Positions 15,352 to 46,488 of a stretch of DNA of 64,000 nucleotides are shown piece after piece. The stretch spans positions 15,148 to 79,147 of the forward strand of contig CAYXWH010000001.1 in the NCBI GenBank assembly GCA_964468755.1, given 5' to 3'. The notes beneath the pieces were generated by a model that saw only the letters and a program-made list of their open reading frames with translations, had not been told where the DNA came from and ran no database searches. Source of the DNA: an uncultured Dehalococcoidaceae bacterium. Its GTDB lineage: Bacteria > Chloroflexota > Dehalococcoidia > Dehalococcoidales > RBG-16-60-22. Positions within the stretch are counted from its first letter, which is position 1; each line of letters starts with the position of its first letter. The position numbers and the translations under genes are program-made.

Positions 15352-15408
15352 AATAACTCCCCCTTTTTCATTACAGTCTTGAGATAGCCCCGATATTTAT
15401 CCGTATCC

Positions 15409-20218: not shown

Positions 20219-20407
20219 TTCCTTCCTCCTTGAACACATTAAGATTAGTATCCTGAACGGCTATACACCGGCAGCCGTTGTCTACCAATTTTCTTAAATG
20301 TTTAATATATTTATGTGGAGGATTGTCTCATTACTTTAGCTAGAAATGATTTCTGTACGGATTATCTATAATACCACCGGCGAATGTCAACAGTCCAGTA
20401 GTGAACA

Positions 20408-22339: not shown

Positions 22340-22659
22340 GATACTATCTTCGGTAGTCTGAGTGATTCGTTTGCCCATGGCTATGGGTAAAATCACTCGG
22401 ACTGCCGTAGGTGGGTTACAGGATGGTTACCCGGTCTTGTATGAGGGGCGGAGGAGCTGTTGTTTGGAGCCAACGGGATAGTGGACACCAAAATAGGCAG
22501 GGTTAGCATAGTGGGGTACCTGTTTCACCGGGGATGGGCCCGGTGCTTGTCAGATGCCAAGTAATCTGCTACCAGTGGAGAGAAAGGCATACAGTTTCCT
22601 TACACCTCATTGACACAGTAACTACTGAGACCAAAAAGGTATGGAAAGAGGGAGATAAC

Positions 22660-23683: not shown

Positions 23684-24619
23684 ATGGATAAACTTATCAT
23701 CACGGCGGCATTAACGGGTAACATCACACTCCCCACCCAGACGCCCTATCTACCGCTGACACCCCAGCAAATTGCCGAGGAGGCGAAAAGGGCGGCTGAT
23801 GCCGGGGCGGCTTCGATACATGTTCATGGCAGAGACCCCAATACCGGAAGGCCGACCACCGACCCCGAAGTATACCGGGAAATCGCCACTCTGATCAAAG
23901 AAAAAACGGACGCCATTGTCTGCATCACCACCGGCGGCACCATGTACATGACCGCCGAGGAACGGGTGCGCGTTGTCCCCGCCCTCAAACCGGAGCTAGC
24001 CACGTTCAACATGGGTTCTATCAACTTCTCCATCCACCCCATTGCGGAACGGTACAAGGACGAGGATTACGTTTATCCCTGGGAGAAAGAATTCGCGGAG
24101 AGCACCAAGGAATTTATCTTCCGCAACACCTTCGCTGATATTGAGCACTTCTGCAAGACAATGCAGGAAAATGACACCAAGCCGGAGCACGAGTGCTATG
24201 ATGTCGGCCACCTCTACAATATGTACTACTTTGTCCGCAAGGGCTTAATCAAACCGCCTCTGTGGATGCAGTTTGTCACCGGCATTCTGGGAGGAATCGG
24301 CTCTAACCCGGAAACTGTCATGTTCCTGAAACAAACGGCTGACCGTTTGTTCGGCGTCGGCACCTATAACTGGTCGGTCATCGGCGCTGGCTACCCGGCA
24401 GAATTTAATGCATGTGCCCTATCAACAATGATGGGAGGACACGCTCGCGTCGGTCTGGAGGATAACATCTTCATTGAGAAAGGCGTCCTCGCCAAGAGCA
24501 ATGGCGAACTGGTCGAGAAGGCGGTGAGAATTGCCAGAGAACTCGGCCGTGAGATTGCCTCCCCTGACGAAGCCAGGCAAATCCTTGGCTTAAAAGGCAG
24601 GGACAAGGTCGGCTACTAG
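23684..24619 (+). CDS. beta-keto acid cleavage enzyme (BKACE / 3-keto-5-aminohexanoate cleavage enzyme family, DUF849)
   Basis: 311 aa. MDKLIITAALTGNITLPTQTPYLPLTPQQIAEEAKRAADAGAASIHVHGRDP is the canonical BKACE N-terminus. Confidence 0.8.
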   Translation: MDKLIITAALTGNITLPTQTPYLPLTPQQIAEEAKRAADAGAASIHVHGRDPNTGRPTTDPEVYREIATLIKEKTDAIVCITTGGTMYMTAEERVRVVPALKPELATFNMGSINFSIHPIAERYKDEDYVYPWEKEFAESTKEFIFRNTFADIEHFCKTMQENDTKPEHECYDVGHLYNMYYFVRKGLIKPPLWMQFVTGILGGIGSNPETVMFLKQTADRLFGVGTYNWSVIGAGYPAEFNACALSTMMGGHARVGLEDNIFIEKGVLAKSNGELVEKAVRIARELGREIASPDEARQILGLKGRDKVGY

Positions 24620-27243: not shown

Positions 27244-29838
27244 ATGGCTTATTCCGCAAATGGTGAACAAGTTTTTACCAACTGCACCGTGGGCGGGCCC
27301 GTCAATGTCTACGTTAAAGACGGAAGAATAACCCGAATGGAACCTCTGCAACTTGATGAGGACGATGCCAAATCCTGGGTAATCGAAGCACGGGGTAAGA
27401 AGTTCTCCCCCCCCAGGAAAGCACTGCTTTCCCCGTATACGTTGACCGAGAGGGCAAAAATATACTCGGCAAACCGCCTTCTTTACCCGATGAAGCGGGT
27501 AGACTTCGACCCTAAAGGCAATCGAAATCCACAGAACAGAGGCAAATCAGGATACCAGCCAATCAGCTGGAAGGAAGCCCTGGATATCCTCTGTCCGGAA
27601 ATAGAGCGCATCCATGCTAAATACGGTCCGGGGGTTGTCGCCAGTACCGCATCTTCTCACCACAGCTGGGGCAATATCGGGTACCGGCACAGTACCTATT
27701 TCCGGTTCATGGGCATCCTCGGCTATACCTACTGCGACCATAACCCGGATAGCTGGGAAGGCTGGCACTGGGGGGCCATGCACACCTGGGGCTTTGCCTG
27801 GAGGCTGGGGGCTCCGGAACAATACGACCTTTTACAGGACGCCCTGAAGAACACTGAGATGATGATTTTCTGGTCGGCTGACCCTGAGTCCACCAGTGGA
27901 ATTTACGCCGGGCAGGAATCAACCCCGAGGCGCTTCTGGCTGAAAGACCTGGGGGTAAAGATGGTCTTTATTGACCCCTACTATAATTTCACGGCGCCCA
28001 ACTTCTGCGACAAATGGTTTGCGCCACGTCCAGGCACCGATACCGCCCTCGCTGCGGCTATCGCCTACGTCTGGATGACCGAAAACATATATGACAAAGA
28101 ATATGTTGCCAAGCGAACCTACGGCTTTGAAAAATGGCGTGACTACATACTCGGCGACGACGGCAGCTTCCCCAAGACACCGGAGTGGGCGGAGAAGGAG
28201 ACCGGAATACCCGCCCGGGAGATTAAAGCCCTCGCCCGGGAATGGTCGAAGAAGAAGACCATGCTGGCGGCTGGGGGTCTTGGCGGCTGGGGAGGAGCCT
28301 GCCGAAGCGCCTACGGGACCGAGTGGGCGCGGATGATGGTGCTCCTTCAGGCAATGCAGGGCCTGGGCAAACCCGGCATCAATATCTGGGCAACCACCGG
28401 CGGCGCCCCCTATAACTCCGATTTTGTCTTTCCCGGATACGCTGAAGGCGGAATATCCGGCGACCCGCTAAATTCCGCCGCGACCTATCAAATGGTAAGC
28501 CGTGGAAGCACCATGAGCCCGGTTAACTCGGCAATAAACAATCCCGGCGGACAGCACATACCGCGGATTCTGGTTCCGGAGTGTATCATGGACGCGCCCC
28601 AGGAATGGCGGGGCAAGGGATTTTGCGGTTCCTCCACCGAATTCCAGTTCAAGAAGTACAAGTACCCCGAAGACGGATTTTCCCGGGTGAAAATGTTTTG
28701 GCGGTATGGCGGTGCCTATATCGGCACCATGAACAATACCAACCGCTGGGTCAAGATGTACCAGAGCCCGAACCTGGAAATGGTGGTCAACCAGTCCATC
28801 TGGCTGGAAGGCGAAGCCCAGTTTGCTGACCTGATACTCCCTGCCTGCACCAACTTCGAAAGGTGGGACATCGGTGAGTGGTCCCATTGCTCGGGTTACA
28901 TACCCCATAACTCCTACCAGACCAACCACCGCATAATCGTCTTTGAAAAGAAATGCATTGAACCACTCGGAGAATCGAAGTCAGACTACGATATATTTGC
29001 CATGATTGCCGACCGGCTCGGCTTCCACGACAAGTTCACCGAGGGAGGCATGACTGACTTAGACCGGGTCAAGAGGATGTATGAGGTAACCGACCTGTCG
29101 AAGTACATTTCCTGGGAGGATTTCGAGAAGAAAGGCTACTTCGTGGTTCCCATGCCTGACGATTATAAACCAACACCAGCGCTGAGGTGGTTTGCCGAGA
29201 ACCGGCACCGGGATACACCCGATTGGGGTCCTGTTGGCGCCGCTGTGGAAGGCCTGCCCGACCGTGAAGGAAACCTGAGCACCCAGACCGGTAAAATTGA
29301 ATTTGAGTCGCAGAGCCTCAAGCGCTTCGACCCTGATGACCCGGAGCGGCCGCTGGTCCCCAAGTACATACCATCGTGGGAGGGCCACCATACCACGGAG
29401 CTTCTTGAAAATTATCCGCTGCAGCTTATTTCACCGCATCCCAGGTTCAGCTTCCATACCCAGTACGATGGCAAAGAAAGCTGGATGAACGAGATACCGG
29501 AGCACCGTGTCAAGGCAAAAGACGGTCACTACTACTGGGTAATCAGGCTAAACAAAGTGGATGCTGACAAGAGAGGTATCAAGAGCAATGACATCGTCAG
29601 GGTCTTTAACGACCGGGGCGTTGTTTTATGTGCCGCCCAGGTTACCGGGCGCGTCCCGACCGGTGTGGTCCATTCTTATGAGTCCAGTGCTGAATACCAG
29701 CCCATCGGCGAGCCCGGTGAATCACCGGACAAAGGCGGCAGCATTAACCTGCTGACCAATCACCGCTTCATGTCAAAGAATGCCTGCGGCATGGCACCTA
29801 ATTCATGCCTCGTGGAAATAGCCAAGGAAGGAGCTTAA
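27244..29838 (+). CDS. athL: pyrogallol hydroxytransferase (transhydroxylase) large-subunit-like molybdopterin enzyme (DMSO reductase family)
   Basis: 864 aa. Recalled from memory, it is full-length colinear with Pelobacter acidigallici AthL (GGPVNVYVKDGRITRMEP, SSHHSWGNIGYRHSTYFRFMGILGYTYCDHNPDSWEGWHWGAMHTWGF, LPACTNFERWDI, GMAPNSCLVEI). Like AthL it has no Tat signal and no N-terminal Cys cluster. Confidence 0.8.
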   Translation: MAYSANGEQVFTNCTVGGPVNVYVKDGRITRMEPLQLDEDDAKSWVIEARGKKFSPPRKALLSPYTLTERAKIYSANRLLYPMKRVDFDPKGNRNPQNRGKSGYQPISWKEALDILCPEIERIHAKYGPGVVASTASSHHSWGNIGYRHSTYFRFMGILGYTYCDHNPDSWEGWHWGAMHTWGFAWRLGAPEQYDLLQDALKNTEMMIFWSADPESTSGIYAGQESTPRRFWLKDLGVKMVFIDPYYNFTAPNFCDKWFAPRPGTDTALAAAIAYVWMTENIYDKEYVAKRTYGFEKWRDYILGDDGSFPKTPEWAEKETGIPAREIKALAREWSKKKTMLAAGGLGGWGGACRSAYGTEWARMMVLLQAMQGLGKPGINIWATTGGAPYNSDFVFPGYAEGGISGDPLNSAATYQMVSRGSTMSPVNSAINNPGGQHIPRILVPECIMDAPQEWRGKGFCGSSTEFQFKKYKYPEDGFSRVKMFWRYGGAYIGTMNNTNRWVKMYQSPNLEMVVNQSIWLEGEAQFADLILPACTNFERWDIGEWSHCSGYIPHNSYQTNHRIIVFEKKCIEPLGESKSDYDIFAMIADRLGFHDKFTEGGMTDLDRVKRMYEVTDLSKYISWEDFEKKGYFVVPMPDDYKPTPALRWFAENRHRDTPDWGPVGAAVEGLPDREGNLSTQTGKIEFESQSLKRFDPDDPERPLVPKYIPSWEGHHTTELLENYPLQLISPHPRFSFHTQYDGKESWMNEIPEHRVKAKDGHYYWVIRLNKVDADKRGIKSNDIVRVFNDRGVVLCAAQVTGRVPTGVVHSYESSAEYQPIGEPGESPDKGGSINLLTNHRFMSKNACGMAPNSCLVEIAKEGA

Positions 29839-29841
29839 ACG

Positions 29842-30672
29842 ATGACTAACTGGGGTATGATAATCGATGTATCAAAGTGCACCGGCTGCTACAACTGTTT
29901 CACCGCTTGTAAAGACGAATACTGGGATAATGATTATCCCCCCTATTCCTCAGGTCAGCCAAAGCACGGGCAATTCTGGATGAATATCGATACCAGAGAA
30001 CGTGGCGCCCACCCCTTCGTAAAAGTCGCTCACATACCTCTGCCCTGCATGCACTGTGACGACGCCCCCTGCATTAAGGCAGCCAAGGATGGTGCCGTCT
30101 ACAAGAGACCTGACGGCGTAGTTATCATAGACCCGAAGAAGGCGGTGGGACAAAAGCAAATAGTTGATGCCTGTCCCTATAATGTAATTTACTGGAATGA
30201 GGAAAAACAGCTTCCCCAGAAGTGTACCTTCTGTGTCCACCGGCTTGAAGCCGGAGAGGTTCCGCGCTGTGTACAGGCATGTCCCAGCGGGGCCCTGATA
30301 TTCGGTGACATGGATGACCCTAAAAGTGAGATTTCCCAGGTTATGGCCTCCGGGAAGACCGAAGTCCTCAATCCGGAACTAAAGACCAAGCCAAGGGTAT
30401 ACTACATCGGGATACCCAGAATGTTTATCGCGGGCAGTGCCGTATTTGAAGACACAGACGAATGTGCCGAGGGAGTGACGGTCACCCTGACCGAACAGTC
30501 TTCCGGCAAATCAATGAAGACCGCTACCAACAACTATGGAGAATTTGAATTTGACGGTCTTGTGTCCGGAAAGTACGTGGTGCAACTGGGATACAACGGT
30601 TATGCGGGAAAGAAGATTGATATAGAACTGAAAACAGACAACTACCTGGGAGCAATTTCCCTGTCTCGATAA
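29842..30672 (+). CDS. bthL: pyrogallol hydroxytransferase small-subunit-like 4Fe-4S protein with C-terminal Ig-like domain
   Basis: 276 aa with CTGCYNCFTAC, CMHCDDAPC and CTFCVHRLEAGEVPRCVQACP. The C-terminal NNYGEFEFDGLVSGKYVV beta-sandwich matches that of BthL. Confidence 0.8.
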   Translation: MTNWGMIIDVSKCTGCYNCFTACKDEYWDNDYPPYSSGQPKHGQFWMNIDTRERGAHPFVKVAHIPLPCMHCDDAPCIKAAKDGAVYKRPDGVVIIDPKKAVGQKQIVDACPYNVIYWNEEKQLPQKCTFCVHRLEAGEVPRCVQACPSGALIFGDMDDPKSEISQVMASGKTEVLNPELKTKPRVYYIGIPRMFIAGSAVFEDTDECAEGVTVTLTEQSSGKSMKTATNNYGEFEFDGLVSGKYVVQLGYNGYAGKKIDIELKTDNYLGAISLSR

Positions 30673-30733
30673 CCATTACGACAGTTCTTGATACGCTATA
30701 AACATGATCTAAGCACAAAAGGAGGTATAAGAA

Positions 30734-31438
30734 GTGCAACGTCTCAGCAATATTAAGAGTCCCATGACGTCAGAGAGTTTGGTAGGTGCTCTGATTGCGG
30801 TGGTGGTCTTCGGTTCTATCTGGGGGCTGGTAGAAGCCACGCTGGGTGGCTTCCTGCACCTCATCCACGTACCCCCATTGTATAAAGGAGCTATTACCGG
30901 TGGCATCGGTATGGCACTCATGGCAATCTTTGTCACCACCTACAAACGGCCCACCCTTGTCTTCGCGATAGGAGTGATTGCCGCACTTTTCAAGCCATTG
31001 AGCGCTATTATATATGCCCAGCCGGTTTTCGCTCCGTTTGTGGTCAACCCGGCCACGGCAATCGTTCTCGAGGCGCTGGGGTTCTGCCTGGTAGCCAGCC
31101 TGCTGCACAAAGGCTTCGAAAGCAGCGTTAAATCACGCGTAGCCATTGGCGTCTCCGCCGGTTACCTGGGCTTTATTCTATTCGCCATTGTCGCCTCGGC
31201 ACTGGGCTTTGGCAAATGGCCCATGATGGGGATTACTGATAAATTAGTTACCACACTGTCCAATGGCACAGCCCTGGCTATTGTCGGTACGTTGCTGCTG
31301 CTGCCGGGGCATCTCGCTGGCAGGCAACTGAGACCCATACTCAGTGCCATGAAACCCAGGACATTCTATGCCGGCGCTGCGGTCAGTATCGTGTTTTGCT
31401 GGGCTATCGCGTCACTTGCCTTTGCCGTCGGTTTGTAG
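30734..31438 (+). CDS. integral membrane protein of unknown family (about 6 TM), co-transcribed with the athL/bthL-like genes
   Basis: 234 aa with a GTG start 7 nt after AAGGAGG. It is hydrophobic throughout. I recognise no motif. Confidence 0.55.
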   Translation: MQRLSNIKSPMTSESLVGALIAVVVFGSIWGLVEATLGGFLHLIHVPPLYKGAITGGIGMALMAIFVTTYKRPTLVFAIGVIAALFKPLSAIIYAQPVFAPFVVNPATAIVLEALGFCLVASLLHKGFESSVKSRVAIGVSAGYLGFILFAIVASALGFGKWPMMGITDKLVTTLSNGTALAIVGTLLLLPGHLAGRQLRPILSAMKPRTFYAGAAVSIVFCWAIASLAFAVGL

Positions 31439-31603: not shown

Positions 31604-32326
31604 ATGGTAAACACCACCACAAAGGGACATGACGAAGTAGCCGAGGCACGCAGCCAGATATACAACCTCTTTGGTGCTCTTTATCTTGAACTGCCCGGTT
31701 TACCGCTGCTGGAAAGCGTATTTGGCGATGAGTTTGAGCGCCAGCTCTCCATGGCTGCCACCAAACTCGATTTGACCAAGATGAAGCGGGGGTTAAAGCT
31801 GGTTACCCGGTTTGTTAACGACTTTAAAGACCAGCCCAGGGATGAAGTCCTCACCCTCGTTTCCGTTGACCGGACACGGCTCCTGCGGGGAGTCAACGCA
31901 CAACTCAGCCCATTACCACCCTACGAGTCAGTTTACCGGGAAGGTCGCCTCTGGGGAGAATCCACTGTAGACGTCGCTCATACTTTTCCCAAACTGGGAG
32001 CCAAACTTCCCGAGCAATGGACTGAGCCACCGGACTACATTGGTATTGAGTTTGACCTCATGCGCCTCATCTGCCAGAGCGAACATGACGCGTGGCATTC
32101 CGGCGATGCCGCCAAAGCTCTGGAATATCTGGAAGCAGGACGAGACTTCTTGAAGAAACATATCCTGCTGTGGGTCCCCGGTTTCTGCGATCAAATGTAC
32201 CGGAGGGCGGAGATCACCTTTTACCAGGGAATCGCCCGGATGACCGATGGCTTCGTAAAGTATGACGGTCATCTCGTGGATTATCAGATTAACGTGGTTA
32301 GAAAGAATCTCGCCGAGCAAGCTTAG
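31604..32326 (+). CDS. TorD/DmsD/NarJ-family molybdoenzyme maturation chaperone
   Basis: 240 aa, all-helical. The conserved PPDYIGIEFDLMRLI block matches the (E/P)PxDHIxxELxFM motif of the TorD family. Confidence 0.7.
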   Translation: MVNTTTKGHDEVAEARSQIYNLFGALYLELPGLPLLESVFGDEFERQLSMAATKLDLTKMKRGLKLVTRFVNDFKDQPRDEVLTLVSVDRTRLLRGVNAQLSPLPPYESVYREGRLWGESTVDVAHTFPKLGAKLPEQWTEPPDYIGIEFDLMRLICQSEHDAWHSGDAAKALEYLEAGRDFLKKHILLWVPGFCDQMYRRAEITFYQGIARMTDGFVKYDGHLVDYQINVVRKNLAEQA

Positions 32327-33279
32327 TAGGTGATATAGGTATCCGATACCGGAAGTAGTACCCCGTCAATATTAAGCGTGGTTCTTGTTCCCCCGGCGAC
32401 AATGATGTGTCTCAACATGAGCCCGCCAAAGAGCCCTATCACACTCACAATTGCAGTGGGAATCAGCATTGTTACCGTTGCCGCCGACGATAGGTAGCCA
32501 ACGTACAGCTCAAATACAAAAGGCACCAGCAGGCCGGAGACCACTACCCCACCCCAGAAACGCGCCGACAGGTTGCCAGTGACCACCATGTTCGCCGAAA
32601 GCCGGGCTTCAGCAAGCTGATACATCCGGTACAGATAGACAACAAGTATAATTGCCTCTACTATTACTATGAAGACATCATACCGGGCGAGGCGAACCAA
32701 CGCAGGTTCGACAGCGGTTCCCGCCGATAAGCCAAATATGGTGAGTATGAACGCTGTCCCCATGATACCGGTGGATATCCCCGACACCAGAAAGAGTACC
32801 GGAAGTACCGTCTGGCTCCAGAATGGAATGGGCTTGGCGGCTCCCAGGAGCAGACCGGTATAAATCATGGTGAGCACGGCAAATATGGAGCCGATAATTC
32901 CAAGAGCGAGAAACGCACCCGCATTATCAGCCAGAATGTTAAACGGCCATATCCACAATCCGATATGTATTATGTCAAGTATTAAAAATATGGTTATGAT
33001 GATACTCCCCCGCGCCATCCATGATGACAGAGGCCGTAAAAACACCATAGCGAATATTTGCTTCTGACCGAGGTCCAGTACCAGCAAAAAGAGCCCGATA
33101 ACCATCAGGGGCGCCGCCAGAATGATGGCTATTTTCGAGAAAAGTGCGAATTCAGAATTGACCAGTCCGAGGATAAAACCCATCAGGTATGCCCCGGCAC
33201 CCATACCCGCCAGGAAAAGATAGGTAGCTACACTCCAGCCCCACACTTTCTGCTTGCGTAGAGTATCAGTCATCTCCAT
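32323..33279 (-). CDS. NrfD/PsrC/DmsC-type polytopic membrane (quinone-interacting) subunit
   Basis: 318 aa with 8 TM. The WGWSVATYLFLAGMGAGAY motif is typical of the NrfD family. Confidence 0.8.
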   Translation of the reverse strand: MEMTDTLRKQKVWGWSVATYLFLAGMGAGAYLMGFILGLVNSEFALFSKIAIILAAPLMVIGLFLLVLDLGQKQIFAMVFLRPLSSWMARGSIIITIFLILDIIHIGLWIWPFNILADNAGAFLALGIIGSIFAVLTMIYTGLLLGAAKPIPFWSQTVLPVLFLVSGISTGIMGTAFILTIFGLSAGTAVEPALVRLARYDVFIVIVEAIILVVYLYRMYQLAEARLSANMVVTGNLSARFWGGVVVSGLLVPFVFELYVGYLSSAATVTMLIPTAIVSVIGLFGGLMLRHIIVAGGTRTTLNIDGVLLPVSDTYITY

Positions 33280-33280
33280 G

Positions 33281-33910
33281 TCACTTCTTTACCTCATCCT
33301 TCGGTAAGTAATACACTGATGGTTTGGTGCCAAATTCCGGGTTAAGCACAAAGCCTTCCCTTTCCCGGATAAGCCTGGATACCTCGCTATCCGGGTCATC
33401 CAGGTCGCCGAAGAAACGGGCCTCGGCCGGGCAGACCTCCACACATGCCGGCTGTAGACCCCGCTCAACTCGTGATTGGCACATATCGCATTTCTGCACC
33501 GTACCCAGTTTATGCTTCTGGTAACCTTCTTTCTCATATGGGGTCATGTGTTCCGGGTAGTAGCTACGCAGCTCATCAAAGAAGTACCGGGTGGCGTAAG
33601 GGCAAGCTATCATGCAGTACCGGCAGCCCACGCACTTATCACTATCAATAACCACAATGCCGTCCTCTCGCTTGGTGCTCGCGCCGGTAGGACACACCTT
33701 CACACATTCCGGGTCCTCACAATGCATGCAGGTTATCGGCAAAAAGTTCAGCCGGCTATCCGGATATTTCCCCGTCTCGTACTTGAGGACTCGGTTCCAC
33801 ATTATTCCCCGTGAGGTGGCATTTTCCGCCTTACATGCAATGGAGCAAGCATCACAGCCTATGCACCGCTTGAGGTCGATTACCAATCCGTACCTGGGCA
33901 TTTGGTTCAA
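33281..33910 (-). CDS. 4x[4Fe-4S] electron-transfer subunit (DmsB/PsrB-type)
   Basis: 209 aa with CIGCDACSIAC, CMHCEDPECVKVCP, CVGCRYCMIACP and CDMC...CVEVCP. Confidence 0.85.
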   Translation of the reverse strand: MNQMPRYGLVIDLKRCIGCDACSIACKAENATSRGIMWNRVLKYETGKYPDSRLNFLPITCMHCEDPECVKVCPTGASTKREDGIVVIDSDKCVGCRYCMIACPYATRYFFDELRSYYPEHMTPYEKEGYQKHKLGTVQKCDMCQSRVERGLQPACVEVCPAEARFFGDLDDPDSEVSRLIREREGFVLNPEFGTKPSVYYLPKDEVKK

Positions 33911-33916
33911 TGCTCC

Positions 33917-36664
33917 TTATATTTTAGATATCTTTACCCTGGGACTGATGCAGATAGACCCGCTCACCGGGTCGATACTGGTCTCTTCATTCCCGGTAAG
34001 TAAGATGTTATAGTACGTACCCTTCCTGGCATCGGGACTCATCAGTACCGTACCGCTGCCGTAGCACGCCGGGATACCGACTACCTCCGGATGAATGAGT
34101 TCAGTTAGTTTCAGTTTGCCTCCGGTCTTGCCATGCTGCGACTCAATCCGGATTTCGTCCCCGTTCTTGAGCCCTTTCTTCCTGGCGGTCTCGGGATTTA
34201 TCCATACATACAATTCATAGGGGTCCGCTTCACGCAGCTCAGCCAGCCAGGCATTCTCCTGCGTATCACCGGCACCAAAGGGCATAAAGTGAGTCTTCCA
34301 GTTGCACACCCACATATCGTACTCCGGCGGCGCTGACAGCTCCGGATTGGGTATCCAGTAAGGGATAGGCTCATAGTACCTGAAGTAGTCTTCCTGGTCT
34401 TTCCAGTTGGGAAGTTTGGCATTATACTTCTTGAGATTCTCCTTCATCCTGTCGCCAGCCGCCTTCAAAAGGTCGAAGTAAATGGGAAATCTCGTCTGGT
34501 TATCCGGCCAGTAATAATAATTGTAGCCGCGTTTGCCGGTGGCGTCATACTTGTAGATAACACCGTGTTTCAACAGGTCGTCGAAGCTGTACTCGTCACC
34601 AAAGACCTGCTTGACCCGCCGGTCTATCATCTCATCGATAGTATACTTCTTATCCAGGTCCAGCTTGTTTTTGCCCTGGAGCTGGAAGGCCACATTGATA
34701 CAGTCGTTAATGCCACCGGGTCCGGTGCGAAAGCCTGCCCGGTCCGCCAGCTCCATCAAGATGTCATCCATACGTTTGGCATCAAACAGTGGCTGTACCG
34801 GGTTGCGTCCGAGAGCCATAATCAAACCACGGGCGCTATCGTCGATATTTTGATGGACAACCAGGTAGAACCTGGCATACTGCCGCTCAAGGAAGTGGTG
34901 CTCAGGTAGCACGATATCGGCCATCATGGTCGGCTCATCAAAGTTAATTGAAACGGTGACAACAAACGGGACTTTCTGGAAAGCCTTGACAAACAGCTCA
35001 CGGTCGCTGGTGCTGCGGATGGAATTTGCACCGCAGACAAGCATGGTATCCAGCTCATAGTCAAGGTAATATTTCTTCGGGTCCAGCACCGACCGGACTA
35101 AAAGATAGGGGGTAGCATGGGAGTGCGGATAAAACTCGTTCATCCCTACATGGTCCGGCGGGAACTTGAAGGGGACTCCCACCGCCTCCATGATCGGCGT
35201 CACCACGCCATCTTCATTGGGCTGAAGCGTCTCGGCGCACGCCCCGGGATTCCGGTTTCCGGTTATACCGCCGGGTACCTCTACCGAGCCTACCAGCATA
35301 TTGATAATCTTACCGGCAAGGTCGAAATAGGTACCGCCTTTTTGTGACATCGTGCCGCGTCCTGAACCAGCAAACTGGGCGGGACGCAATGGGAACTCAA
35401 AGCCATCTATGGTTATAGTGCTACCAATCTGGGCATGCTCTACGAATTCCTGGGTTACCTCACGGATAGTTGACGCCGGTATGGTGGTGATTTCTTCCGC
35501 CCACTCCGGCGTGTAGTCCTTCATCTGCTCTTTTATCAGCTGCAGTGCCGGTTTCACTTTAACGCCGGCTACCGTGTATTCACCATCAAGGGCATAGTCC
35601 TTGATAGAGGTATCATCAAATGTCTTGGCCTTATTGTCCACCGGGTCCCATACCAGCGGCTTCCCGGTGGCGCTATCCCTGAAGTAATAGCCGTCAGGAC
35701 CAATGAGGTAGGGGCCGTTGGTGCGGTTTTTAACCGACCACTCGTCAAGCTTCTTAATTTCGTAGAAGATGACGTGTATCATGGCCAGGGCAAACGCCAA
35801 CTCGGTACCCGGCCTTACCGGTATCCAGCGATATGCCTTGGACGCCTCAGGAGAAAAGCGGGGGTCAAGGGTAACCAGCTTCATACCGCGGTCGATAGCG
35901 TCCAGGAACCGCTTGGTGGCGTGCGGCGAACCGGCGTTGGGGCCCACCGTTCTGCCGGGAGCAATGAGGTATTTACAGTGTTGCAGGTCGGTAATGTATT
36001 CCGGATGCTGCCCGTGGACGAGGTTGGCTGCATAGTGAATGGCACAGAGCGGGCCGTGAGAAAAGACTTCATTCGGTGTCCCGAAGGCTCTGGAGAAGAT
36101 AAGGCTGCCATGGGTGTAGTTAACACTCTTTTCCCACTCTTTACAGGTAACGAGAAAGTCCTCAGCGGCACCCCAGCCTTCCCATACCGCCAGCTTACGA
36201 GGGTCTTCCTCCCTGATTTTCTTCAGCCGCTGGCCTACCGTGTCCAGGGCTTCCTCCCAGCTAATCTCCACCCAGCCCGGGTCGACATCAGGACCCTTCT
36301 CCGGGTTGGTACGCTTCATGGGAGCTTTTACCCGATACGGATTATACAATCCCTGAACGGCAGCAACGCCCCGGATACAGAGCCTGCCCTGACTCAGCGG
36401 GCTGTCCGGATTGCCTTCGATATTGACTACCACGCCATCTTTGAGGTGGACCCTGGTGCTACAGTCAGCCTGCATGCAGCCCATGCAGTAGCTATATATC
36501 CACTCCTCTTGCGATGAATTCTTCTCGGGCATGGGAGTACCCAGTGTGACCGTGGTCTTGCGTTCGATATCAAGGGATTTACTGAGTGAGGCTAATTCCT
36601 TGGCTGCTGAGGATGTGTGCTGAATTGCTGATTCGTTGTTTTCACCCGCTTTTTTTCTCGGCAT
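33917..36664 (-). CDS. molybdopterin (bis-MGD) oxidoreductase catalytic subunit, DMSO reductase family, without a twin-arginine signal
   Basis: 915 aa. An FS0-type Cys motif CMGCMQADC...C follows a roughly 55-aa polar N-terminal extension with no RR or hydrophobic core. The C-terminal beta-barrel domain reads GDEIRIESQHGKTGGKLKLTELIHPEVVG. Confidence 0.85.
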   Translation of the reverse strand: MPRKKAGENNESAIQHTSSAAKELASLSKSLDIERKTTVTLGTPMPEKNSSQEEWIYSYCMGCMQADCSTRVHLKDGVVVNIEGNPDSPLSQGRLCIRGVAAVQGLYNPYRVKAPMKRTNPEKGPDVDPGWVEISWEEALDTVGQRLKKIREEDPRKLAVWEGWGAAEDFLVTCKEWEKSVNYTHGSLIFSRAFGTPNEVFSHGPLCAIHYAANLVHGQHPEYITDLQHCKYLIAPGRTVGPNAGSPHATKRFLDAIDRGMKLVTLDPRFSPEASKAYRWIPVRPGTELAFALAMIHVIFYEIKKLDEWSVKNRTNGPYLIGPDGYYFRDSATGKPLVWDPVDNKAKTFDDTSIKDYALDGEYTVAGVKVKPALQLIKEQMKDYTPEWAEEITTIPASTIREVTQEFVEHAQIGSTITIDGFEFPLRPAQFAGSGRGTMSQKGGTYFDLAGKIINMLVGSVEVPGGITGNRNPGACAETLQPNEDGVVTPIMEAVGVPFKFPPDHVGMNEFYPHSHATPYLLVRSVLDPKKYYLDYELDTMLVCGANSIRSTSDRELFVKAFQKVPFVVTVSINFDEPTMMADIVLPEHHFLERQYARFYLVVHQNIDDSARGLIMALGRNPVQPLFDAKRMDDILMELADRAGFRTGPGGINDCINVAFQLQGKNKLDLDKKYTIDEMIDRRVKQVFGDEYSFDDLLKHGVIYKYDATGKRGYNYYYWPDNQTRFPIYFDLLKAAGDRMKENLKKYNAKLPNWKDQEDYFRYYEPIPYWIPNPELSAPPEYDMWVCNWKTHFMPFGAGDTQENAWLAELREADPYELYVWINPETARKKGLKNGDEIRIESQHGKTGGKLKLTELIHPEVVGIPACYGSGTVLMSPDARKGTYYNILLTGNEETSIDPVSGSICISPRVKISKI

Positions 36665-37033
36665 CGCTTGTTAGCTCCAGAAATCCGGTTTTCACTATAT
36701 ATGCTGGTTATTAATTACATCAACCAGCATCAGAGCATCACCACTCGCACTCGCATGCTTATTCGGTTCAACATCGAATTCAGCTCGCAGTGGCTGATTT
36801 TATCCAGCAACACCACTTCGCTAGTGAAAGAAGAATGAAGCTCTTCTCTTATTATTATACGTATAGAGTTACGGGAAAGTCAACGAACCAATACCAGTGC
36901 TCAGTCTTCCATTCTGTTTCCAGGTTGGTTCAGGTACGCGCTGTCTTAAAGCAATCCCCGCACCGGAACAATAGCAAGGATGAAGACTACCATGATGATT
37001 GGCCTTCATCCATCGCTCATTAGTAAGCTGTCG

Positions 37034-37384
37034 TTAGCCTACTGGCGGTCTGGTGTTGGGTGGCGGGGGGTTCTTCATGCCGATGCGGAAGTACTCGCCG
37101 GTCGCCTTGCGCTTCCAGCCAACCCGCTGGTTCAACGGGTGCTCCATCCGTATCGCCCCCGGTACCGGACACGGCTCAACACAGCAACCACCAAACCAGC
37201 ACTCATCAGGATAGAGCACTATAGGCGGTTTGCCCTTCTCCAGATTGGGCACCAGCACATCCGTCCGGCATACCTCCACGCAATTATTACACCCGGTACA
37301 GAGCTCCGGGTCGATGATTATTGCCTGGCATGGGGTCATCGGATTGGGGACCATGTAGGCCTCATTGTAGACTTCGCTCACCAT
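37034..37384 (-). CDS. AprB-like 2x[4Fe-4S] ferredoxin subunit, copy 2 (protein identical to 17854-18204)
   Basis: The 351-nt CDS differs from copy 1 only by two synonymous changes, in the third- and fourth-from-last sense codons. Confidence 0.65.
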   Translation of the reverse strand: MVSEVYNEAYMVPNPMTPCQAIIIDPELCTGCNNCVEVCRTDVLVPNLEKGKPPIVLYPDECWFGGCCVEPCPVPGAIRMEHPLNQRVGWKRKATGEYFRIGMKNPPPPNTRPPVG

Positions 37385-37795: not shown

Positions 37796-39403
37796 CTACT
37801 CTCCGGGAAGCCGCCAGGGATACCTCTGTTCATAGGGCTGGGACAGGTCAGGCCGCCATTCCTGGGGTACCGGCTGCTTAAATACCTTCATCTCACTGTT
37901 TTCCTCCTGCAGCAGTACCCATGCCAGCCAGTTCGCGTCATCCCGGCGGGGATAGTCTTCACGGTAATGGCAGCCACGGCTTTCTGTCCGGAATAGCGAA
38001 GCCCTCAGCCTCATCTCGGCATTCAGAATCATGTTCTTCGTTTCAAGTGCCAAACGCAACTCGTGCGGGTCCCGGGCAAATATTTTTGGAGCCATGTGGT
38101 CTCTCAGGAACTCGGTTATGGTCAATGCCGCTCTCATGCGGTCTTCTTTCTTGATATACAAAATGAAATACGGCATCATGGTGTTCTGTAATACCTGGGT
38201 CACCCACCTCGGACTGAAGCCACCTTTACGCTCCGCCGGCGCCTGGACTATCTTCTTTATCCGGGACACCTCCTGGTCGTCGATTTCCGGCTTCTCTGCC
38301 TGTTTGGCATACCCGGCAGCCGCCACACCGGCAATAGTCCCGGTAACCGAGGAACCGCCGAGCGCACAACCAATGGCACCGTACACAGCACCCATCTGCA
38401 TGGTGCCCAGAGCATCGCCAGCGGCGTAAAGCCCGGAGAGACTGGTGGCACAGCTGGTATCAACCGGCCAGATACCTTCGGCTTTATGGACCGACATGCC
38501 AGAGGAAGCTCCGCCTATCCGTACCGACTTCTCGCCATCAGGCATTTGCGAATATACTGGTGCCCGTCCCGCATGGGCTTCAAACTCCATATCCAGAAAC
38601 AAGGTACCGCGACCGGTTATCTCATTACCCTCGGCATTTAACTGCTTGCCCCGGCGGGGTCCGCCACTCATCCTCTTGGCGAAGCCGAGATATGCCGGGT
38701 GCTCGGCACCGGTGGGGTGCGTATCGGCAAATTCCTTGCCGGTTATCTCAGCACCGGCCCGGTACGCCATGGCATCACCATCCGCCGTCAACGCCGAAAT
38801 GGGCCAGCCCCAGGGCTTGAAACCCCCGGCTCCCGAGCACAGCACCGTCGCCTTTACCCGGAAAACATAAATATCATAACTCTCCATGGGAATGCCGATG
38901 ACACCCACAATCCGGCCGTCCTGCTTCAAAAGGTCGGTGACCATGATTCTGTCCATGAGCTTGACGCCCCGCTTCACCGCCTGCTTCCTCATAAGCTCGG
39001 CAAATACCTTGGCCCCCATATGGGCTGCCCGGCAGGGTCCCAGCATCGATTCGGACCGGAATAGCGTCCCATCTTCATTCTTGCGGAACTCCACTCCCCA
39101 GGAAACGAGGTCCTGGTACCGGGCGTAGGACTCCTTAAAGGCGATTTCCGTCCATTCCCGGTTATTGACATACTGACCCACCCGGCTGACCTGTTCCACC
39201 CAGGCAGCTAAATCATCACCCCACTCCGGGTTAAAGACCGAGTAACTGCCGGCAAACGGGGTTTGCCCTGATTTACCAGCATACCCCTTGTCCACCAGGG
39301 TCACCACTACCCCCTGCTCCTTTGCCTTTATCGCCGCAAAGAGACCGGCTATGCCTCCACCGACTATCAGTACATCCGTCTCTACCACCTTTGCCGCTGG
39401 CAT
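37796..39403 (-). CDS. FAD-dependent oxidoreductase, fumarate reductase/succinate dehydrogenase/L-aspartate oxidase flavoprotein family
   Basis: 535 aa with DVLIVGGGIAGLFAA and the canonical C-terminal RTESRGCHYREDYP motif. Confidence 0.8.
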   Translation of the reverse strand: MPAAKVVETDVLIVGGGIAGLFAAIKAKEQGVVVTLVDKGYAGKSGQTPFAGSYSVFNPEWGDDLAAWVEQVSRVGQYVNNREWTEIAFKESYARYQDLVSWGVEFRKNEDGTLFRSESMLGPCRAAHMGAKVFAELMRKQAVKRGVKLMDRIMVTDLLKQDGRIVGVIGIPMESYDIYVFRVKATVLCSGAGGFKPWGWPISALTADGDAMAYRAGAEITGKEFADTHPTGAEHPAYLGFAKRMSGGPRRGKQLNAEGNEITGRGTLFLDMEFEAHAGRAPVYSQMPDGEKSVRIGGASSGMSVHKAEGIWPVDTSCATSLSGLYAAGDALGTMQMGAVYGAIGCALGGSSVTGTIAGVAAAGYAKQAEKPEIDDQEVSRIKKIVQAPAERKGGFSPRWVTQVLQNTMMPYFILYIKKEDRMRAALTITEFLRDHMAPKIFARDPHELRLALETKNMILNAEMRLRASLFRTESRGCHYREDYPRRDDANWLAWVLLQEENSEMKVFKQPVPQEWRPDLSQPYEQRYPWRLPGE

Positions 39404-41353: not shown

Positions 41354-42442
41354 ATGATAACATTCCCAGCATTATCCGGAGTTGAGATCAACGTATTTTT
41401 ACTCGTCTTCATCGGACTTGGCGCCGGGATTCTCAGCGGTTTTTCCGGCGTCGGCGGCTCATTTGTGGTGACACCGGCCCTGATTATTATTGGCTTCCCG
41501 GCCAATTACGCCGTAGGCACCAGCCTTGCCTGGGTTATGGGCAATGCCATCGTCGGCACCTTCCGGCACAGAAAACTGGGTAACGTTGATATGAAGCTGG
41601 GGCTGGTCATTATCGTGGCAGTCATGGGAGGCGTGGAAATCGGGGTGAGAATTATCAACCGGGCTACCGCCGCCGGGATGGCTAACGAGGTAGTACTCTC
41701 CATTTCCACATGTGTTCTGCTTATCGTAGGCACCTATACCCTGCTGGAAAGCATCCGCAGGAAGCGATACCTTGACCGGGCACTGGCTCAAGGGGCCAAA
41801 TCAGCGCCGGAGACAAATGGCACCTCTCTTTCCCGGAAGCTACAGAGCATTTACCTGCCGCCGAGAATACATTTTGCAAGGTCGGGGATTACCATATCCC
41901 TGTGGATTATACTCGCCGCAGGTTTCATCACCGGCATGATAGTGGGTATTATCGGGGTTGGCGGCGGTTTTATTATGGTGCCGTCACTGGTATACCTCAT
42001 CGGCCTGCCATCGTTCATGGCCGTCGGCACTGATCTGTTCCAGATTATCTTCTCCGCCGCTTTCGGTTCTATCCGCCACACCATGAGCGGCAATGTGATT
42101 ATCTTTGCTTCCCTGATTATGCTTATTGCCTCCAGCGTCGGGGTACAGTTCGGGGCACTGGTCACCCGCTATGTACGCGGTGTCTCGGTGCGATTTGTCC
42201 TCGGCCTTACCATAGTAATCGCCGCTGTGGGCGCCATCCTCAAGCTGGCAAATACCCTGGTTACAACCACCACTGTAGGACTTGAGATAGGGTCAATCGT
42301 GGTTATTTTTAGCGGTATGGGAATAGCCATAGTGATAATTGCCTTACTTTTTATTATGGCTCTTCGCTCCCGCTCCGGTCATTCCATTCCACCCTTTATA
42401 AAGGCTTTTCTGGCTACCGGCGGTTCCCCTGCGGAAAAGTAG
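41354..42442 (+). CDS. TauE/SafE family anion (sulfite-exporter family) permease
   Basis: 362 aa with a duplicated 4-TM architecture. GILSGFSGVGGSFVVTP and GIIGVGGGFIMVPSLVYL are the family's G-rich motifs. Confidence 0.8.
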   Translation: MITFPALSGVEINVFLLVFIGLGAGILSGFSGVGGSFVVTPALIIIGFPANYAVGTSLAWVMGNAIVGTFRHRKLGNVDMKLGLVIIVAVMGGVEIGVRIINRATAAGMANEVVLSISTCVLLIVGTYTLLESIRRKRYLDRALAQGAKSAPETNGTSLSRKLQSIYLPPRIHFARSGITISLWIILAAGFITGMIVGIIGVGGGFIMVPSLVYLIGLPSFMAVGTDLFQIIFSAAFGSIRHTMSGNVIIFASLIMLIASSVGVQFGALVTRYVRGVSVRFVLGLTIVIAAVGAILKLANTLVTTTTVGLEIGSIVVIFSGMGIAIVIIALLFIMALRSRSGHSIPPFIKAFLATGGSPAEK

Positions 42443-44388: not shown

Positions 44389-46488
44389 ATGCATGATTTC
44401 TTCTTTAACCCGGAAAGCATAGCGGTTATCGGGGCATCTCGCCAGCCGGGCAAGGTTGGCTATGACGCCCTGAAAAATTTAATAGACGCCAACTACGGGG
44501 GTAAAATATACCCGGTAAACCCGAGCGTTGATAACATCCTCGGACTGAAAACGTACCATAACGTACTGGATATCGAGGATGAGGTTGACCTGGCACTGGT
44601 AATCGTTCCGGCCCCTCTGGTCATCAATACCTTTAAGGCTTTGATAGACAAAGGGGTGAAGGGAGCGGTAGTCATTACGGCCGGTTTCAAGGAGATAGGC
44701 GGCAAAGGGGCGGAAATGGAGCGGGAACTGGTCGAGCTTTGCCGGGGTAAAATCCGGGTTATTGGCCCCAACTGCCTGGGTATCATTGATACCTATGCCA
44801 ACCTTAACGCCTCATTCGCTCCGACCATGCCACGCCAGGGCAAGATAGGGTTCATTTCCCAGTCGGGCGCCATGGTTAGCTCTATCCTTGATTTTGCCGC
44901 CGGTAGAGACATGGGGTTCTCCAAGTTTATCAGCATGGGCAATAAAATGGACCTTGACGAGACACACTTCCTGGAGATTCTCGGCGAGGATAAAAACACC
45001 AGGGTCATCATCGGCTATATTGAGAGTGTCACCGACGGCAAAAAATTCATCGATGTGGCCGAGAAGATATCCAGGAAAAAACCGGTTATTCTCTTTAAAT
45101 CAGGCGTATCCGCGGAAGGAACCAGAGCCGCCTCTTCCCATACCGGGGCGTTGTCCGGTCTCGACAGGGCTTACGAATGTGCCTTCAATAAGTCGGGCGT
45201 AATCAGAGCCAGGTCAATAGAGGACCTGTTTGACTGGGCTGAGGTATTCGCTTCGCAGCCACTCCCAACCGGGAAACGAATCGCCATTGTCACCAATGCC
45301 GGTGGTCCGGGGATAATCGCCACTGACAAAGCCTCCGAGGAACAGCTACTGCTGGCCTCGCTCAGTACCACCACGGTGAAAAGTCTGCAGGAGTTACTGC
45401 CGCCAGCGGCATCTGCCTATAACCCCATTGATGTCCTCGGCGATGCTGACAGTACCCGCTACGAGGGCGTTATCGAGGCAGTGGTTCAGGCTAATGAAGT
45501 GGACGGACTCGTCGTTATCCTGTCACCGCAGGCAAATACTCAAATTGAAGAGACAGCAAAAATCGTATCCAATTTCGCATACACTTCCCCCAAGCCGATA
45601 ATCACCTCCTTCATGGGGCAAGACCGGGTGGCTACCGCGTCCAGTATCTTCAAGAAGGGCAGAGTCGCCAACATCGCCTTCCCTGACCGCGCCGTGCGGG
45701 CTATGTCAGTCATGGCTAGCTACAGCCAGTGGAAGCGGCAGGAAAAGAGTGAAGCCCTTATCAAGAATATCAATAGCAGAAAAGTTGAAGAGTTTCTGAG
45801 AGCGAAGCTGAGCCAGGACAAGATAAAACTGGCCGACTTCGAGGCAAGGGAACTGCTCGAGCTTTGTGATATCCCGACATTACCCACCGCCCTGGCCAAT
45901 ACCGCCGATGAGGCGGTGAGCCATGCCCGTGAAATGGGGTTCCCGGTGGTTATGAAGGTCTATTCCCCCGAGATTTTACACAAGACAGACGTCGGTGGGG
46001 TTAAAGTGGGACTGAGAACCCCGGAGGAAGTGGTCGGAGCCTTTGAAGAAATCATGGTGAACGTCAACAGATATCTCCCCCAGGCGCCGGTAGTGGGCAT
46101 TACCGTGCAGAAGATGGTAGATGGAGGCAAGGAGGTTATTGCCGGCTTCTCCCGCGATCCACAGTTTGGCCCGCTCATGATGTTCGGACTGGGTGGTGTC
46201 TACGTTGAAGTCCTGAAAGATGTCAACTTTGCCCTCACCCCGCTTAGTAAGAGGGAGATAGTAGAGCTGGTATCCGGGATAAAATCCTTCCCGCTGCTGA
46301 GCGGGATAAGGGGCGAAAAAGAAAAAGACCTCGACGCGCTCTACGAAGTTATCGCCACTCTGTCCACTTTGGGAGAGCAGTATCCGGAAATTGTAGAGAT
46401 GGAAATAAATCCGCTGGTGATAAAAGATAAGGGCGAAGGACTGTGTGCAATTGACGGCAGACTAATCTTAAAGGGGGCACCACAATGA
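44389..46488 (+). CDS. ADP-forming acetyl-CoA synthetase (acetate--CoA ligase, fused alpha/beta; NDP-forming acyl-CoA synthetase family)
   Basis: 699 aa. It has a CoA-binding N-terminus PESIAVIGASRQPGKVG, succinyl-CoA-synthetase-like ligase domains and a C-terminal ATP-grasp. Confidence 0.85.
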   Translation: MHDFFFNPESIAVIGASRQPGKVGYDALKNLIDANYGGKIYPVNPSVDNILGLKTYHNVLDIEDEVDLALVIVPAPLVINTFKALIDKGVKGAVVITAGFKEIGGKGAEMERELVELCRGKIRVIGPNCLGIIDTYANLNASFAPTMPRQGKIGFISQSGAMVSSILDFAAGRDMGFSKFISMGNKMDLDETHFLEILGEDKNTRVIIGYIESVTDGKKFIDVAEKISRKKPVILFKSGVSAEGTRAASSHTGALSGLDRAYECAFNKSGVIRARSIEDLFDWAEVFASQPLPTGKRIAIVTNAGGPGIIATDKASEEQLLLASLSTTTVKSLQELLPPAASAYNPIDVLGDADSTRYEGVIEAVVQANEVDGLVVILSPQANTQIEETAKIVSNFAYTSPKPIITSFMGQDRVATASSIFKKGRVANIAFPDRAVRAMSVMASYSQWKRQEKSEALIKNINSRKVEEFLRAKLSQDKIKLADFEARELLELCDIPTLPTALANTADEAVSHAREMGFPVVMKVYSPEILHKTDVGGVKVGLRTPEEVVGAFEEIMVNVNRYLPQAPVVGITVQKMVDGGKEVIAGFSRDPQFGPLMMFGLGGVYVEVLKDVNFALTPLSKREIVELVSGIKSFPLLSGIRGEKEKDLDALYEVIATLSTLGEQYPEIVEMEINPLVIKDKGEGLCAIDGRLILKGAPQ

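Follow-up and report, generated by a model that had tools for sequence, protein, structure and literature searches.

NrfD-type modules are usually regarded as periplasm-facing elements of redox loops. A chaperone-assisted enzyme of another design, the respiratory nitrate reductase NarGHJI, keeps its catalytic subunit in the cytoplasm, and the N-terminal peptide of NarG is a vestigial leader for twin-arginine translocation (Tat) that is bound by NarJ. In PsrABC, PhsABC and ArrAB(C) (2VPW/2VPZ, 6CZ7), a catalytic subunit with Cys-ligated molybdenum, an iron-sulfur (FeS) subunit and an NrfD-type anchor form an A-B-NrfD architecture that is Tat-exported, has a canonically oriented anchor and acts on inorganic sulfur or arsenic substrates. 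The sulfite:quinone oxidoreductase SoeABC of Allochromatium, Aquifex and Roseobacters is likewise anchored by a member of the NrfD superfamily and is predicted to face the cytoplasm through an inverted anchor (PMC8076601), and PadBCD of Thauera and Aromatoleum (EC 1.17.5.1) oxidises phenylacetyl-coenzyme A (phenylacetyl-CoA; PMC5109826), a substrate that, as a CoA thioester, must be cytoplasmic. We have analysed a stretch of 64,000 nucleotides from an uncultured Dehalococcoidaceae bacterium (contig CAYXWH010000001.1, positions 15,148 to 79,147; the whole stretch is called the window below), in which three adjacent genes, here termed A, B and C, encode a complex related to these enzymes. We judge, with a probability of roughly 0.65, that ABC is a membrane-bound complex with a molybdenum- or tungsten-bis(pyranopterin guanine dinucleotide) centre (Mo/W-bisPGD), that it belongs to a PadBCD-like branch with A and B on the cytoplasmic face of the membrane, and that a TorD-like chaperone encoded beside the operon docks to an N-terminal extension of A.

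A first-pass annotation of this DNA had described a three-gene operon for a 915-residue bis-molybdopterin guanine dinucleotide subunit, a four-cluster FeS subunit and an NrfD-type subunit with eight transmembrane segments (8-TM), and the open reading frames (ORFs) are indeed present at these positions on the minus strand (Table 1). The A subunit contains the domains Molybdop_Fe4S4 (residues 54-108), Molybdopterin (111-640) and Molydop_binding (809-889), each of which exceeds the gathering cutoff of its Pfam family (PF04879, PF00384 and PF01568), and its AlphaFold2 model has a predicted local distance difference test score (pLDDT) of 84.6. Its domain content identifies A as a Mo/W-bisPGD catalytic subunit of the dimethyl sulfoxide (DMSO) reductase superfamily, with the bound cofactor itself predicted. 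The ligand of the metal, left unassigned by the first-pass annotation, is predicted by alignment to be Cys207. This column is invariant in the alignment of 39 family members, is Cys in PadB and a Ser-Ser pair in Escherichia coli DmsA, and lies against the SHSSVCAE segment of ArrA, which we take to hold the Mo ligand of that enzyme. The B subunit has 16 Cys in four cluster motifs, and its likely start is the ATG at 33901 (206 residues), in keeping with the 206-residue gene calls of public contigs; no leader was found in its sequence, the N-terminus being ...MPRYGLVIDLKRCIGC. With a four-cluster FeS subunit and an NrfD-family anchor encoded with A, the operon has the A-B-NrfD layout of complex iron-sulfur molybdoenzymes.

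It had also been claimed that the N-terminus of A is extended by a polar stretch of some 55 residues, with neither an RR motif nor a hydrophobic core before the Cys motif of the FS0 cluster, and this description holds. Residues 1-55 contain no RR motif and no h-region. Over 12 residues, their Kyte-Doolittle hydropathy reaches 0.26 at most, while the true Tat leaders of four relatives reach 1.3-1.7. At 9 nt 5' of the A start codon (ATG at 36664) there is an in-frame TAA (36673-36671), with GGAG at 36678-36675, so no longer reading frame of A is possible; the upstream or alternative start with a twin-arginine leader, for which the first-pass annotation had left room, is thereby ruled out. Met45 was considered as the true start and discarded: the protein sequence of the extension is kept in homologues of 70-91% identity, so the extension must be translated. 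Its core motif, ELASLS-KxLx(h)E[RK]KxGVxxGTPMP, is resembled by the N-terminus of Sporomusa A, ASLSGGELALKTAxVWAEGSPVP (ASLS...KT..V...GSPVP). In the AlphaFold2 model, residues 1-35 have pLDDT <50 and are disordered except for a short predicted helix (residues 19-30), a modelled appearance that would be expected of a docking peptide and that says nothing about binding itself.

The orientation of the complex can be judged from its anchor. The AlphaFold2 model of C (pLDDT 83) has eight helices, and its fold matches those of ActC (TM-score 0.75) and PsrC. By phmmer, C had no matches in the PDB even at E = 10, and a profile of the C family reached only ActC (E = 0.028). With helix boundaries that agree between the AlphaFold2 model and the family alignment, C itself has 11 Lys plus Arg residues (K+R) on its N-terminal-side loops and 1 on the other side. 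Across 117 homologues the mean K+R is 13.2 for the N-terminus, loops 2-3, 4-5 and 6-7 and the C-terminus together, against 0.76 for the remaining loops, and the bias towards the N-terminal side is found in all 117. Two E. coli controls gave the opposite result in the same crude analysis (NrfD, 5 vs 12; DmsC, 4 vs 8); the N-out topology of DmsC is experimentally established. The hydropathy-based TM predictor is crude and miscounted the helices of PadD, SoeC, HybB and the Sporomusa anchor; quantitative use was limited to C and the two controls, and PadD and SoeC were parsed by hand, which places their K/R-rich loops on the N-terminal side as well. TM1 of C and that of NrfD are homologous, with a co-linear Pfam alignment in which the motifs VWGWSVATYLFLAG and VWDWPIAIYLFLIG correspond. 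Because the first helices are homologous while the K/R pattern is reversed, the core of C is predicted to be inverted: C would be N-in/C-in, contrary to canonical NrfD, PsrC and DmsC. Furthermore, 47 of the 57 conserved residues of C are on the K/R-rich half (p = 2e-4), and it is the corresponding half that bears the FeS subunit and the quinone site in PsrC and ActC (PMC8076601). Next to a Tat-positive relative (locus L009), the anchor has the same 8-TM core (residues 41-307) flanked on either side by one further TM; overall, this anchor is predicted to be N-in, which would put its core in the canonical orientation. The earlier inference that the complex faces the cytoplasm thus gains computational support from the clade-wide lack of Tat leaders on A and B, the inverted anchor, the conserved K/R-rich face and the canonical anchor of the Tat-positive relative. 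What does not stand is the view that such an orientation would be near-unprecedented, as SoeABC and PadBCD are known or predicted to face inward.

The TorD-like gene reported next to the operon is real, with a correction as to its orientation: it is on the plus strand and convergent with the operon, and it shares its last 4 nt with the 3' end of C. Related loci connect it with ABC. In L095/L098 (A identity 80%), A-B-C meets a convergent, abutting TorD-like gene (63% identity) and no transhydroxylase is nearby; L099 (also 80%) has the same arrangement. In L101/L102 (70%), A-B-C-TorD are on one strand, with a 4-nt overlap of C and TorD and 1 nt shared by B and C, and in two Sporomusa species (35%) the order is NrfD-B-A-TorD. 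Because relatives keep the TorD-like gene beside ABC without a transhydroxylase, or as the fourth gene of the operon, we assign it to ABC; by gene order it appears to be a conserved partner of the ABC operon, not of the transhydroxylase genes that adjoin it in the window. Mere membership of a transhydroxylase operon was rejected on the arrangements in L095/L098 and L102.

The length of the N-terminus agrees with this assignment. Among 66 Tat-less A subunits of the superfamily, the first Cys is preceded by 46-75 residues in each of the seven that have a TorD-like gene at a distance of up to 6 kb, whereas the 59 without a nearby TorD have a median of 20 (Mann-Whitney p = 1e-4); of the Tat-positive members, four out of six have a TorD gene within 6 kb. 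Superfamily-wide, an A subunit accompanied by TorD has either a Tat leader or a long Tat-less extension. The synteny of ABC with TorD and the tracking of TorD by N-terminal length lend computational support to the earlier proposal that the extension is a docking remnant for the TorD-like protein. In Gram-positives, Chlorobia and Archaea, a chaperone survey (Bay, Chan & Turner 2015, PMC4464133) had reported TorD/DmsD-family genes beside operons for NrfD, FeS and MopB proteins (nrfD-hybA-bisC), a neighbourhood identical to that seen here and in Sporomusa; the account of these operons in that survey, unlike the present analysis, does not address orientation, the absence of Tat leaders or N-terminal docking peptides.

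Of the characterised enzymes, PadBCD appears from sequence comparison to be the closest relative of the complex. In phmmer searches A matches PadB with 442-449 bits and 32% identity over the full length, and of the solved structures it scores highest with ArrA (164 bits) and PsrA (155 bits). The reference locus is L036 of Aromatoleum toluclasticum, in which the gene for an A homologue (32% identity) is followed in turn by those for an FeS protein, a DmsC-type anchor, FdhD, PadE and PadG. We take it to be PadBCD because the downstream PadE (317 bits, cutoff 300) and PadG (771 bits, cutoff 700) exceed their equivalog cutoffs; the 90% cluster of its A homologue includes PadB2 of Azoarcus sp. CIB. 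ABC and PadBCD agree in their three-subunit layout: the Mo subunit has FS0 and a Cys at the ligand position, the FeS subunit has four clusters, and the 8-TM anchor is without cofactors; the catalytic subunits of both are Tat-less and would lie on the cytoplasmic side, and the anchors are K/R-rich on the N-terminal side (by hand count for PadD). However, PadD matches the Pfam family DmsC (PF04976) and C matches NrfD (PF03916), PadB has about 20 residues before FS0 and no extension where A has about 55, and the Pad locus carries FdhD and padEFGHI but no TorD-like gene. Genes of the type of padEFGHI, for phenylglyoxylate oxidoreductase, and of padJ were not found in the subset of window ORFs that was scanned. 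The first-pass annotation had called for a phylogeny; an approximate neighbour-joining (NJ) tree, which has no support values, now places A within a PadB-like superclade, in a clade separate from PadB; PadB falls in a sister clade, where every member has a short N-terminus. The complex therefore belongs to the PadB-like superclade, and A is a relative of PadB but no orthologue.

Other enzymes are more remote. A scores well below the NCBIfam equivalog cutoffs of PhsA (246.6 vs 694 bits), ArrA (187 vs 1600) and TtrA (59 vs 1750), and it lacks the twin-arginine leader of the outward-facing PsrABC, PhsABC, ArrABC and TtrABC. SoeA-type proteins of Azospirillum and Paraburkholderia reach 147-176 bits, the level of ArrA and PsrA; the reference here was an Azospirillum plasmid gene beside xsc, whose cluster includes a protein named SoeA. 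Membership of SoeABC was rejected on these scores, and kinship with it seems limited to the superfamily level. The absence of a Tat leader and the inverted anchor are common to both without making ABC a member, and SoeABC differs in its DmsC/YnfH-type anchor and its linkage to sulfur or sulfonate genes such as xsc. NarGHJI resembles ABC in its Tat-less cytoplasmic catalytic subunit, its N-terminal peptide and a TorD/NarJ-family chaperone encoded alongside, the binding of which is presumed for ABC; unlike ABC, it has a type II catalytic subunit with an Asp ligand, a haem-b anchor (NarI) and minimal sequence similarity (33.8 bits for A against TIGR01580, NarG). Each feature of ABC is thus already known separately, the inward-facing anchor from PadBCD and SoeABC and the NarJ-like chaperone logic from NarGHJI.

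In the mechanism that we propose, A, which also carries FS0, would convert a cytoplasmic organic substrate at its Cys207-ligated Mo/W centre, and the four [4Fe-4S] clusters of B would wire A to the 8-TM anchor. C, inserted N-in/C-in, would turn its docking and quinone face to the cytoplasm and probably exchange electrons there with menaquinone. A would stay unexported, and its 55-residue extension, possibly a degenerated Tat leader, would dock the adjacent TorD/NarJ-family chaperone, which would keep apo-A for cofactor insertion, as NarJ does for NarG.

Several points weigh against this interpretation. L100 and L094 have a long extension and no TorD-like gene within 4-10 kb, so TorD is not universal, and the p value linking TorD to N-terminal length ignores phylogeny and uses start codons set by rule. 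The predicted topology of C derives from the positive-inside rule, which is statistical, and the basal placement of Tat-positive branches described below comes from a tree lacking support values. The context from which a substrate may be guessed is conserved only within the same species. Finally, the TorD-like gene lies downstream of the transhydroxylase genes at a distance of 165 nt and shares their strand, and its product could serve the transhydroxylase too. An explanation built on this last point, in which the gene belongs to the pyrogallol-transhydroxylase-like operon and the extension of A is a disordered linker with no chaperone role, is unlikely. It would agree with the order of the genes (AthL-like, BthL-like, a 234-residue membrane protein, TorD-like), which resembles the alpha, beta, membrane protein, chaperone order of type II DMSO reductase operons, and with the low AlphaFold2 confidence for the extension. 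However, TorD-like genes (63% and 49% identity) follow ABC on contig stretches without a detected transhydroxylase, in one case co-directionally as A-B-C-TorD; in L096, where an AthL-like gene lies 8 kb from ABC, the A N-terminus is short and there is no TorD; and N-terminal length tracks the presence of TorD. To our knowledge, moreover, the transhydroxylase of Pelobacter acidigallici is an alpha-beta enzyme with no reported dedicated chaperone.

The remaining alternatives concern the side of the membrane and the reaction. That ABC faces outward like PsrABC, PhsABC and ArrABC, with A and B exported by an unrecognised signal or by hitch-hiking on a Tat substrate, is very improbable: PhsA, ArrA and PsrA are the best NCBIfam and PDB matches by name, and family members at 48% and 39% identity bear Tat leaders, but the matches to PhsA and ArrA are far under the family cutoffs (246 vs 694 and 187 vs 1600 bits), neither A nor B contains an RR or a hydrophobic segment, the anchor is predicted to be inverted in 117 of 117 homologues, and PadBCD, the closest characterised relative, uses a cytoplasmic CoA thioester. 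A sulfur enzyme is likewise very improbable, whether a sulfite dehydrogenase of the cytoplasmic SoeABC type or a reductase of thiosulfate or polysulfide in the cytoplasm. In its favour, SoeABC shares the predicted inward orientation and the inverted anchor (PMC8076601), sulfur disproportionators have cytoplasmic PhsAB-like enzymes (PMC13490349), the top NCBIfam match of A is PhsA, and the window holds genes for a TauE sulfite exporter, an arylsulfotransferase and AprA-like flavoproteins. Against this, A scores no better with SoeA (147-176 bits) than with ArrA or PsrA and far below the 442 bits of PadB, the SoeC anchor is of the DmsC and not the NrfD type, the IMG name of the family is merely a generic COG name, and relatives lie among genes for the catabolism of organic acids, amines and aromatics, where no sulfur genes are conserved. 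Finally, identity of function with PadBCD, that is alpha-oxidation of arylacetyl-CoA, is highly improbable even though PadB is the nearest characterised homologue, the ligand-column Cys is found in both, and an ADP-forming acyl-CoA synthetase and an AMP-forming ligase are encoded in the window: A and PadB are just 32% identical and fall in sister NJ clades, with short N-termini throughout that of PadB; no 2-oxoacid oxidoreductase genes of the padEFGHI type were seen among the window ORFs examined; the anchors belong to different Pfam families; and PadBCD loci have FdhD, not TorD.

The inward-facing, chaperone-docked complex that we favour would belong to a clade that is uncharacterised and widespread in metagenomes. 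Metagenomes contain more than 100 proteins that are 46-91% identical to A; none is specifically named, and the IMG label is a generic COG name only. A homologue of 70% identity, like the 90% cluster of the AthL-like protein of the window, is labelled Chloroflexota. A genome scan added 589 more distant relatives (28-47% identity) from many phyla, in which leaders are mostly absent. RRxFLK leaders occur in 4 of the 120 listed homologues (P0095, P0103, P0108 and P0119), and real Tat leaders among the distant relatives are found in two Deferribacterales metagenome-assembled genomes (MAGs), one Bathyarchaeia MAG and one further MAG. P0065 and P0053 are A+B pairs without an anchor, amid genes for alcohol dehydrogenase, tautomerase, aminotransferase and TRAP (tripartite ATP-independent periplasmic) transporters; such anchor-free AB relatives are soluble and count towards the cytoplasmic interpretation. 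In the NJ tree, the branches basal to the group containing the clade of A are Tat-positive, in line with the view that the extension arose by decay of a Tat leader about as long. A broader scenario, which we regard as tentative and on balance doubtful, is that this lineage turned an outward, Tat-exported NrfD-anchored enzyme inward: a 10-TM anchor would have lost two helices, flipping the 8-TM core, the Tat leader would have decayed to a TorD docking site, and the product would serve menaquinone-linked (de)hydroxylation of a polyphenol-derived intermediate in anaerobic Chloroflexota.

Some relatives of A depart from the A-B-C arrangement. P0026 and P0004 are orphan A genes, as are those of L005 (10001-12682, 67% identity) and L094 (10001-12742, 78%), which have no B, C or TorD within 10 kb; the L094 orphan retains its long extension. 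Tat-positive relatives occur as tandem paralogue pairs (L008, 8001-14782; L009, 42-7256) in the order A-B-A-B or B-NrfD-A-A, and the pair of L009 adjoins genes of the xanthine dehydrogenase family. In L002/L097 (3954-4909), the NrfD gene is split into ORFs of 244 and 73 residues in one Joint Genome Institute contig that is otherwise 100% identical, either through a frameshift or through an assembly error. A sister clade at 46-50% identity (P0072-P0120, L016 and L065), from Clostridia, Chloroflexota and Desulfobacterota, conserves another Tat-less extension, about 45 residues long, with the motif SPYxWKxVDPxxKG, and some of its members have B-NrfD-TorD in the same operon. A proteobacterial group (L077, L082, L084, L086, L088, L090 and L093; 28-29% identity to A) carries the IMG name phenylacetyl-CoA:acceptor oxidoreductase; it has YCYQCVAGPDL at the N-terminus, its FS0 motif seems to lack the third Cys spacing, and the name is probably an over-extended KEGG Orthology assignment. 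The possibility that this padB-named group is SoeA was rejected, as it is a different and more distant group (253 bits).

Table 1. Positions in the window of the ABC operon, its parts and the neighbouring genes discussed in the text
Feature	Position	Strand	Basis or remark
TorD/NarJ-family maturation chaperone, 240 aa	31604-32326	plus	PF02613, E 6e-25
C subunit, 8-TM NrfD-type anchor	32323-33279	minus	PF03916, E 4e-30
B subunit, four-cluster ferredoxin	33281-33910	minus	Pfam Fer4_11 and related; NCBIfam matches ArrB, DsrO
A subunit, 915 aa	33917-36664	minus	Mo/W-bisPGD catalytic subunit (cofactor predicted), PadB-like clade
Cys207 of A, predicted Mo/W ligand, motif GPLCAIHY	36044-36046	minus	alignment
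FS0 [4Fe-4S] ligands Cys60, Cys63, Cys68, Cys96 of A	36377-36487	minus	invariant in 39-sequence family alignment
N-terminal extension, aa 1-55 of A	36500-36664	minus	polar; proposed chaperone-docking peptide
Promoter candidate, sigma-70-like, TTGACT-18-TATAAT, 11/12	36854-36883	minus	consensus scan only
Small 2x[4Fe-4S] ferredoxin	37034-37384	minus	
Flavoprotein, fumarate reductase/AprA type	37796-39403	minus	
Flavoprotein, fumarate reductase/AprA type	18245-20239	minus	
Flavoprotein, fumarate reductase/AprA type	10108-12081	plus	
AthL-like, BthL-like and 234-aa membrane protein genes	27244-31438	plus	
BKACE-family enzyme	23684-24619	plus	
3-hydroxyacyl-CoA dehydrogenase	22534-23610	plus	
Genes fitting an anaerobic phloroglucinol pathway (the two preceding and two for short-chain dehydrogenases), first segment	21175-24619	plus	
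The same group of genes, second segment	16935-17705	minus	
Arylsulfotransferase, URO-D-type methyltransferase and TauE/SafE exporter genes	14161-16743 and 41354-42442	minus and plus, respectively	
AMP-forming ligase	12156-14117		
ADP-forming acyl-CoA synthetase	44389-46488		

The promoter candidate of Table 1 lies about 190 nt 5' of the A start, and its presence upstream of A suggests that ABC is transcribed separately from the flavoprotein and ferredoxin genes upstream, the ferredoxin gene being immediately 5' of the operon and following that of the flavoprotein. Across relatives, only B, C and TorD recur as neighbours of A, and synteny therefore does not identify the substrate. Genes of polyphenol catabolism abound in the window itself, which suggests polyphenol catabolism as the context of ABC. 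Its AthL-like protein scores 1140 bits against the large subunit of the pyrogallol-phloroglucinol transhydroxylase of P. acidigallici (4v4c_A). The AthL-like and BthL-like genes are followed by that of the 234-residue polytopic membrane protein, which has no Pfam or NCBIfam match, and we know of no membrane-protein partner of this kind for the characterised soluble transhydroxylase. A BKACE-family enzyme and a 3-hydroxyacyl-CoA dehydrogenase would fit an anaerobic phloroglucinol pathway, in which either of two short-chain dehydrogenases could be the phloroglucinol reductase. Three paralogous flavoproteins of the fumarate reductase/AprA type are far under the equivalog cutoffs, and an arylsulfotransferase, an O-demethylase-like methyltransferase of the URO-D (uroporphyrinogen decarboxylase) type and a TauE/SafE sulfite exporter hint at the use of sulfated or methoxylated aromatics. 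Further genes of the window encode major facilitator superfamily transporters and the acyl-CoA synthetase and ligase mentioned above. The neighbours of relatives include O-demethylase-type methyltransferases, xanthine-dehydrogenase-family enzymes, TRAP transporters and aminotransferases. Our best guess, held with low confidence, is that ABC carries out a quinone-linked oxidation, hydroxylation or dehydroxylation of an aromatic or polyphenol-derived intermediate in anaerobic catabolism.

If cytoplasmic docking of the complex is true, models of energy conservation change, with substrate conversion and quinone site both on the membrane's N-side, in proteins that current pipelines annotate as polysulfide, thiosulfate or nitrate reductases. 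The family would also be a natural experiment, in which 10-TM anchors go with the Tat-positive members and inverted 8-TM anchors with the Tat-less ones, at 40-50% identity, and allows the co-evolution of membrane topology and export signals to be tested. Similarly, Tat-less N-terminal peptides that track TorD offer a test of recognition by the TorD family once the twin-arginine motif has gone. For the organism, the locus may supply a quinone-linked step for anaerobic polyphenol degradation.

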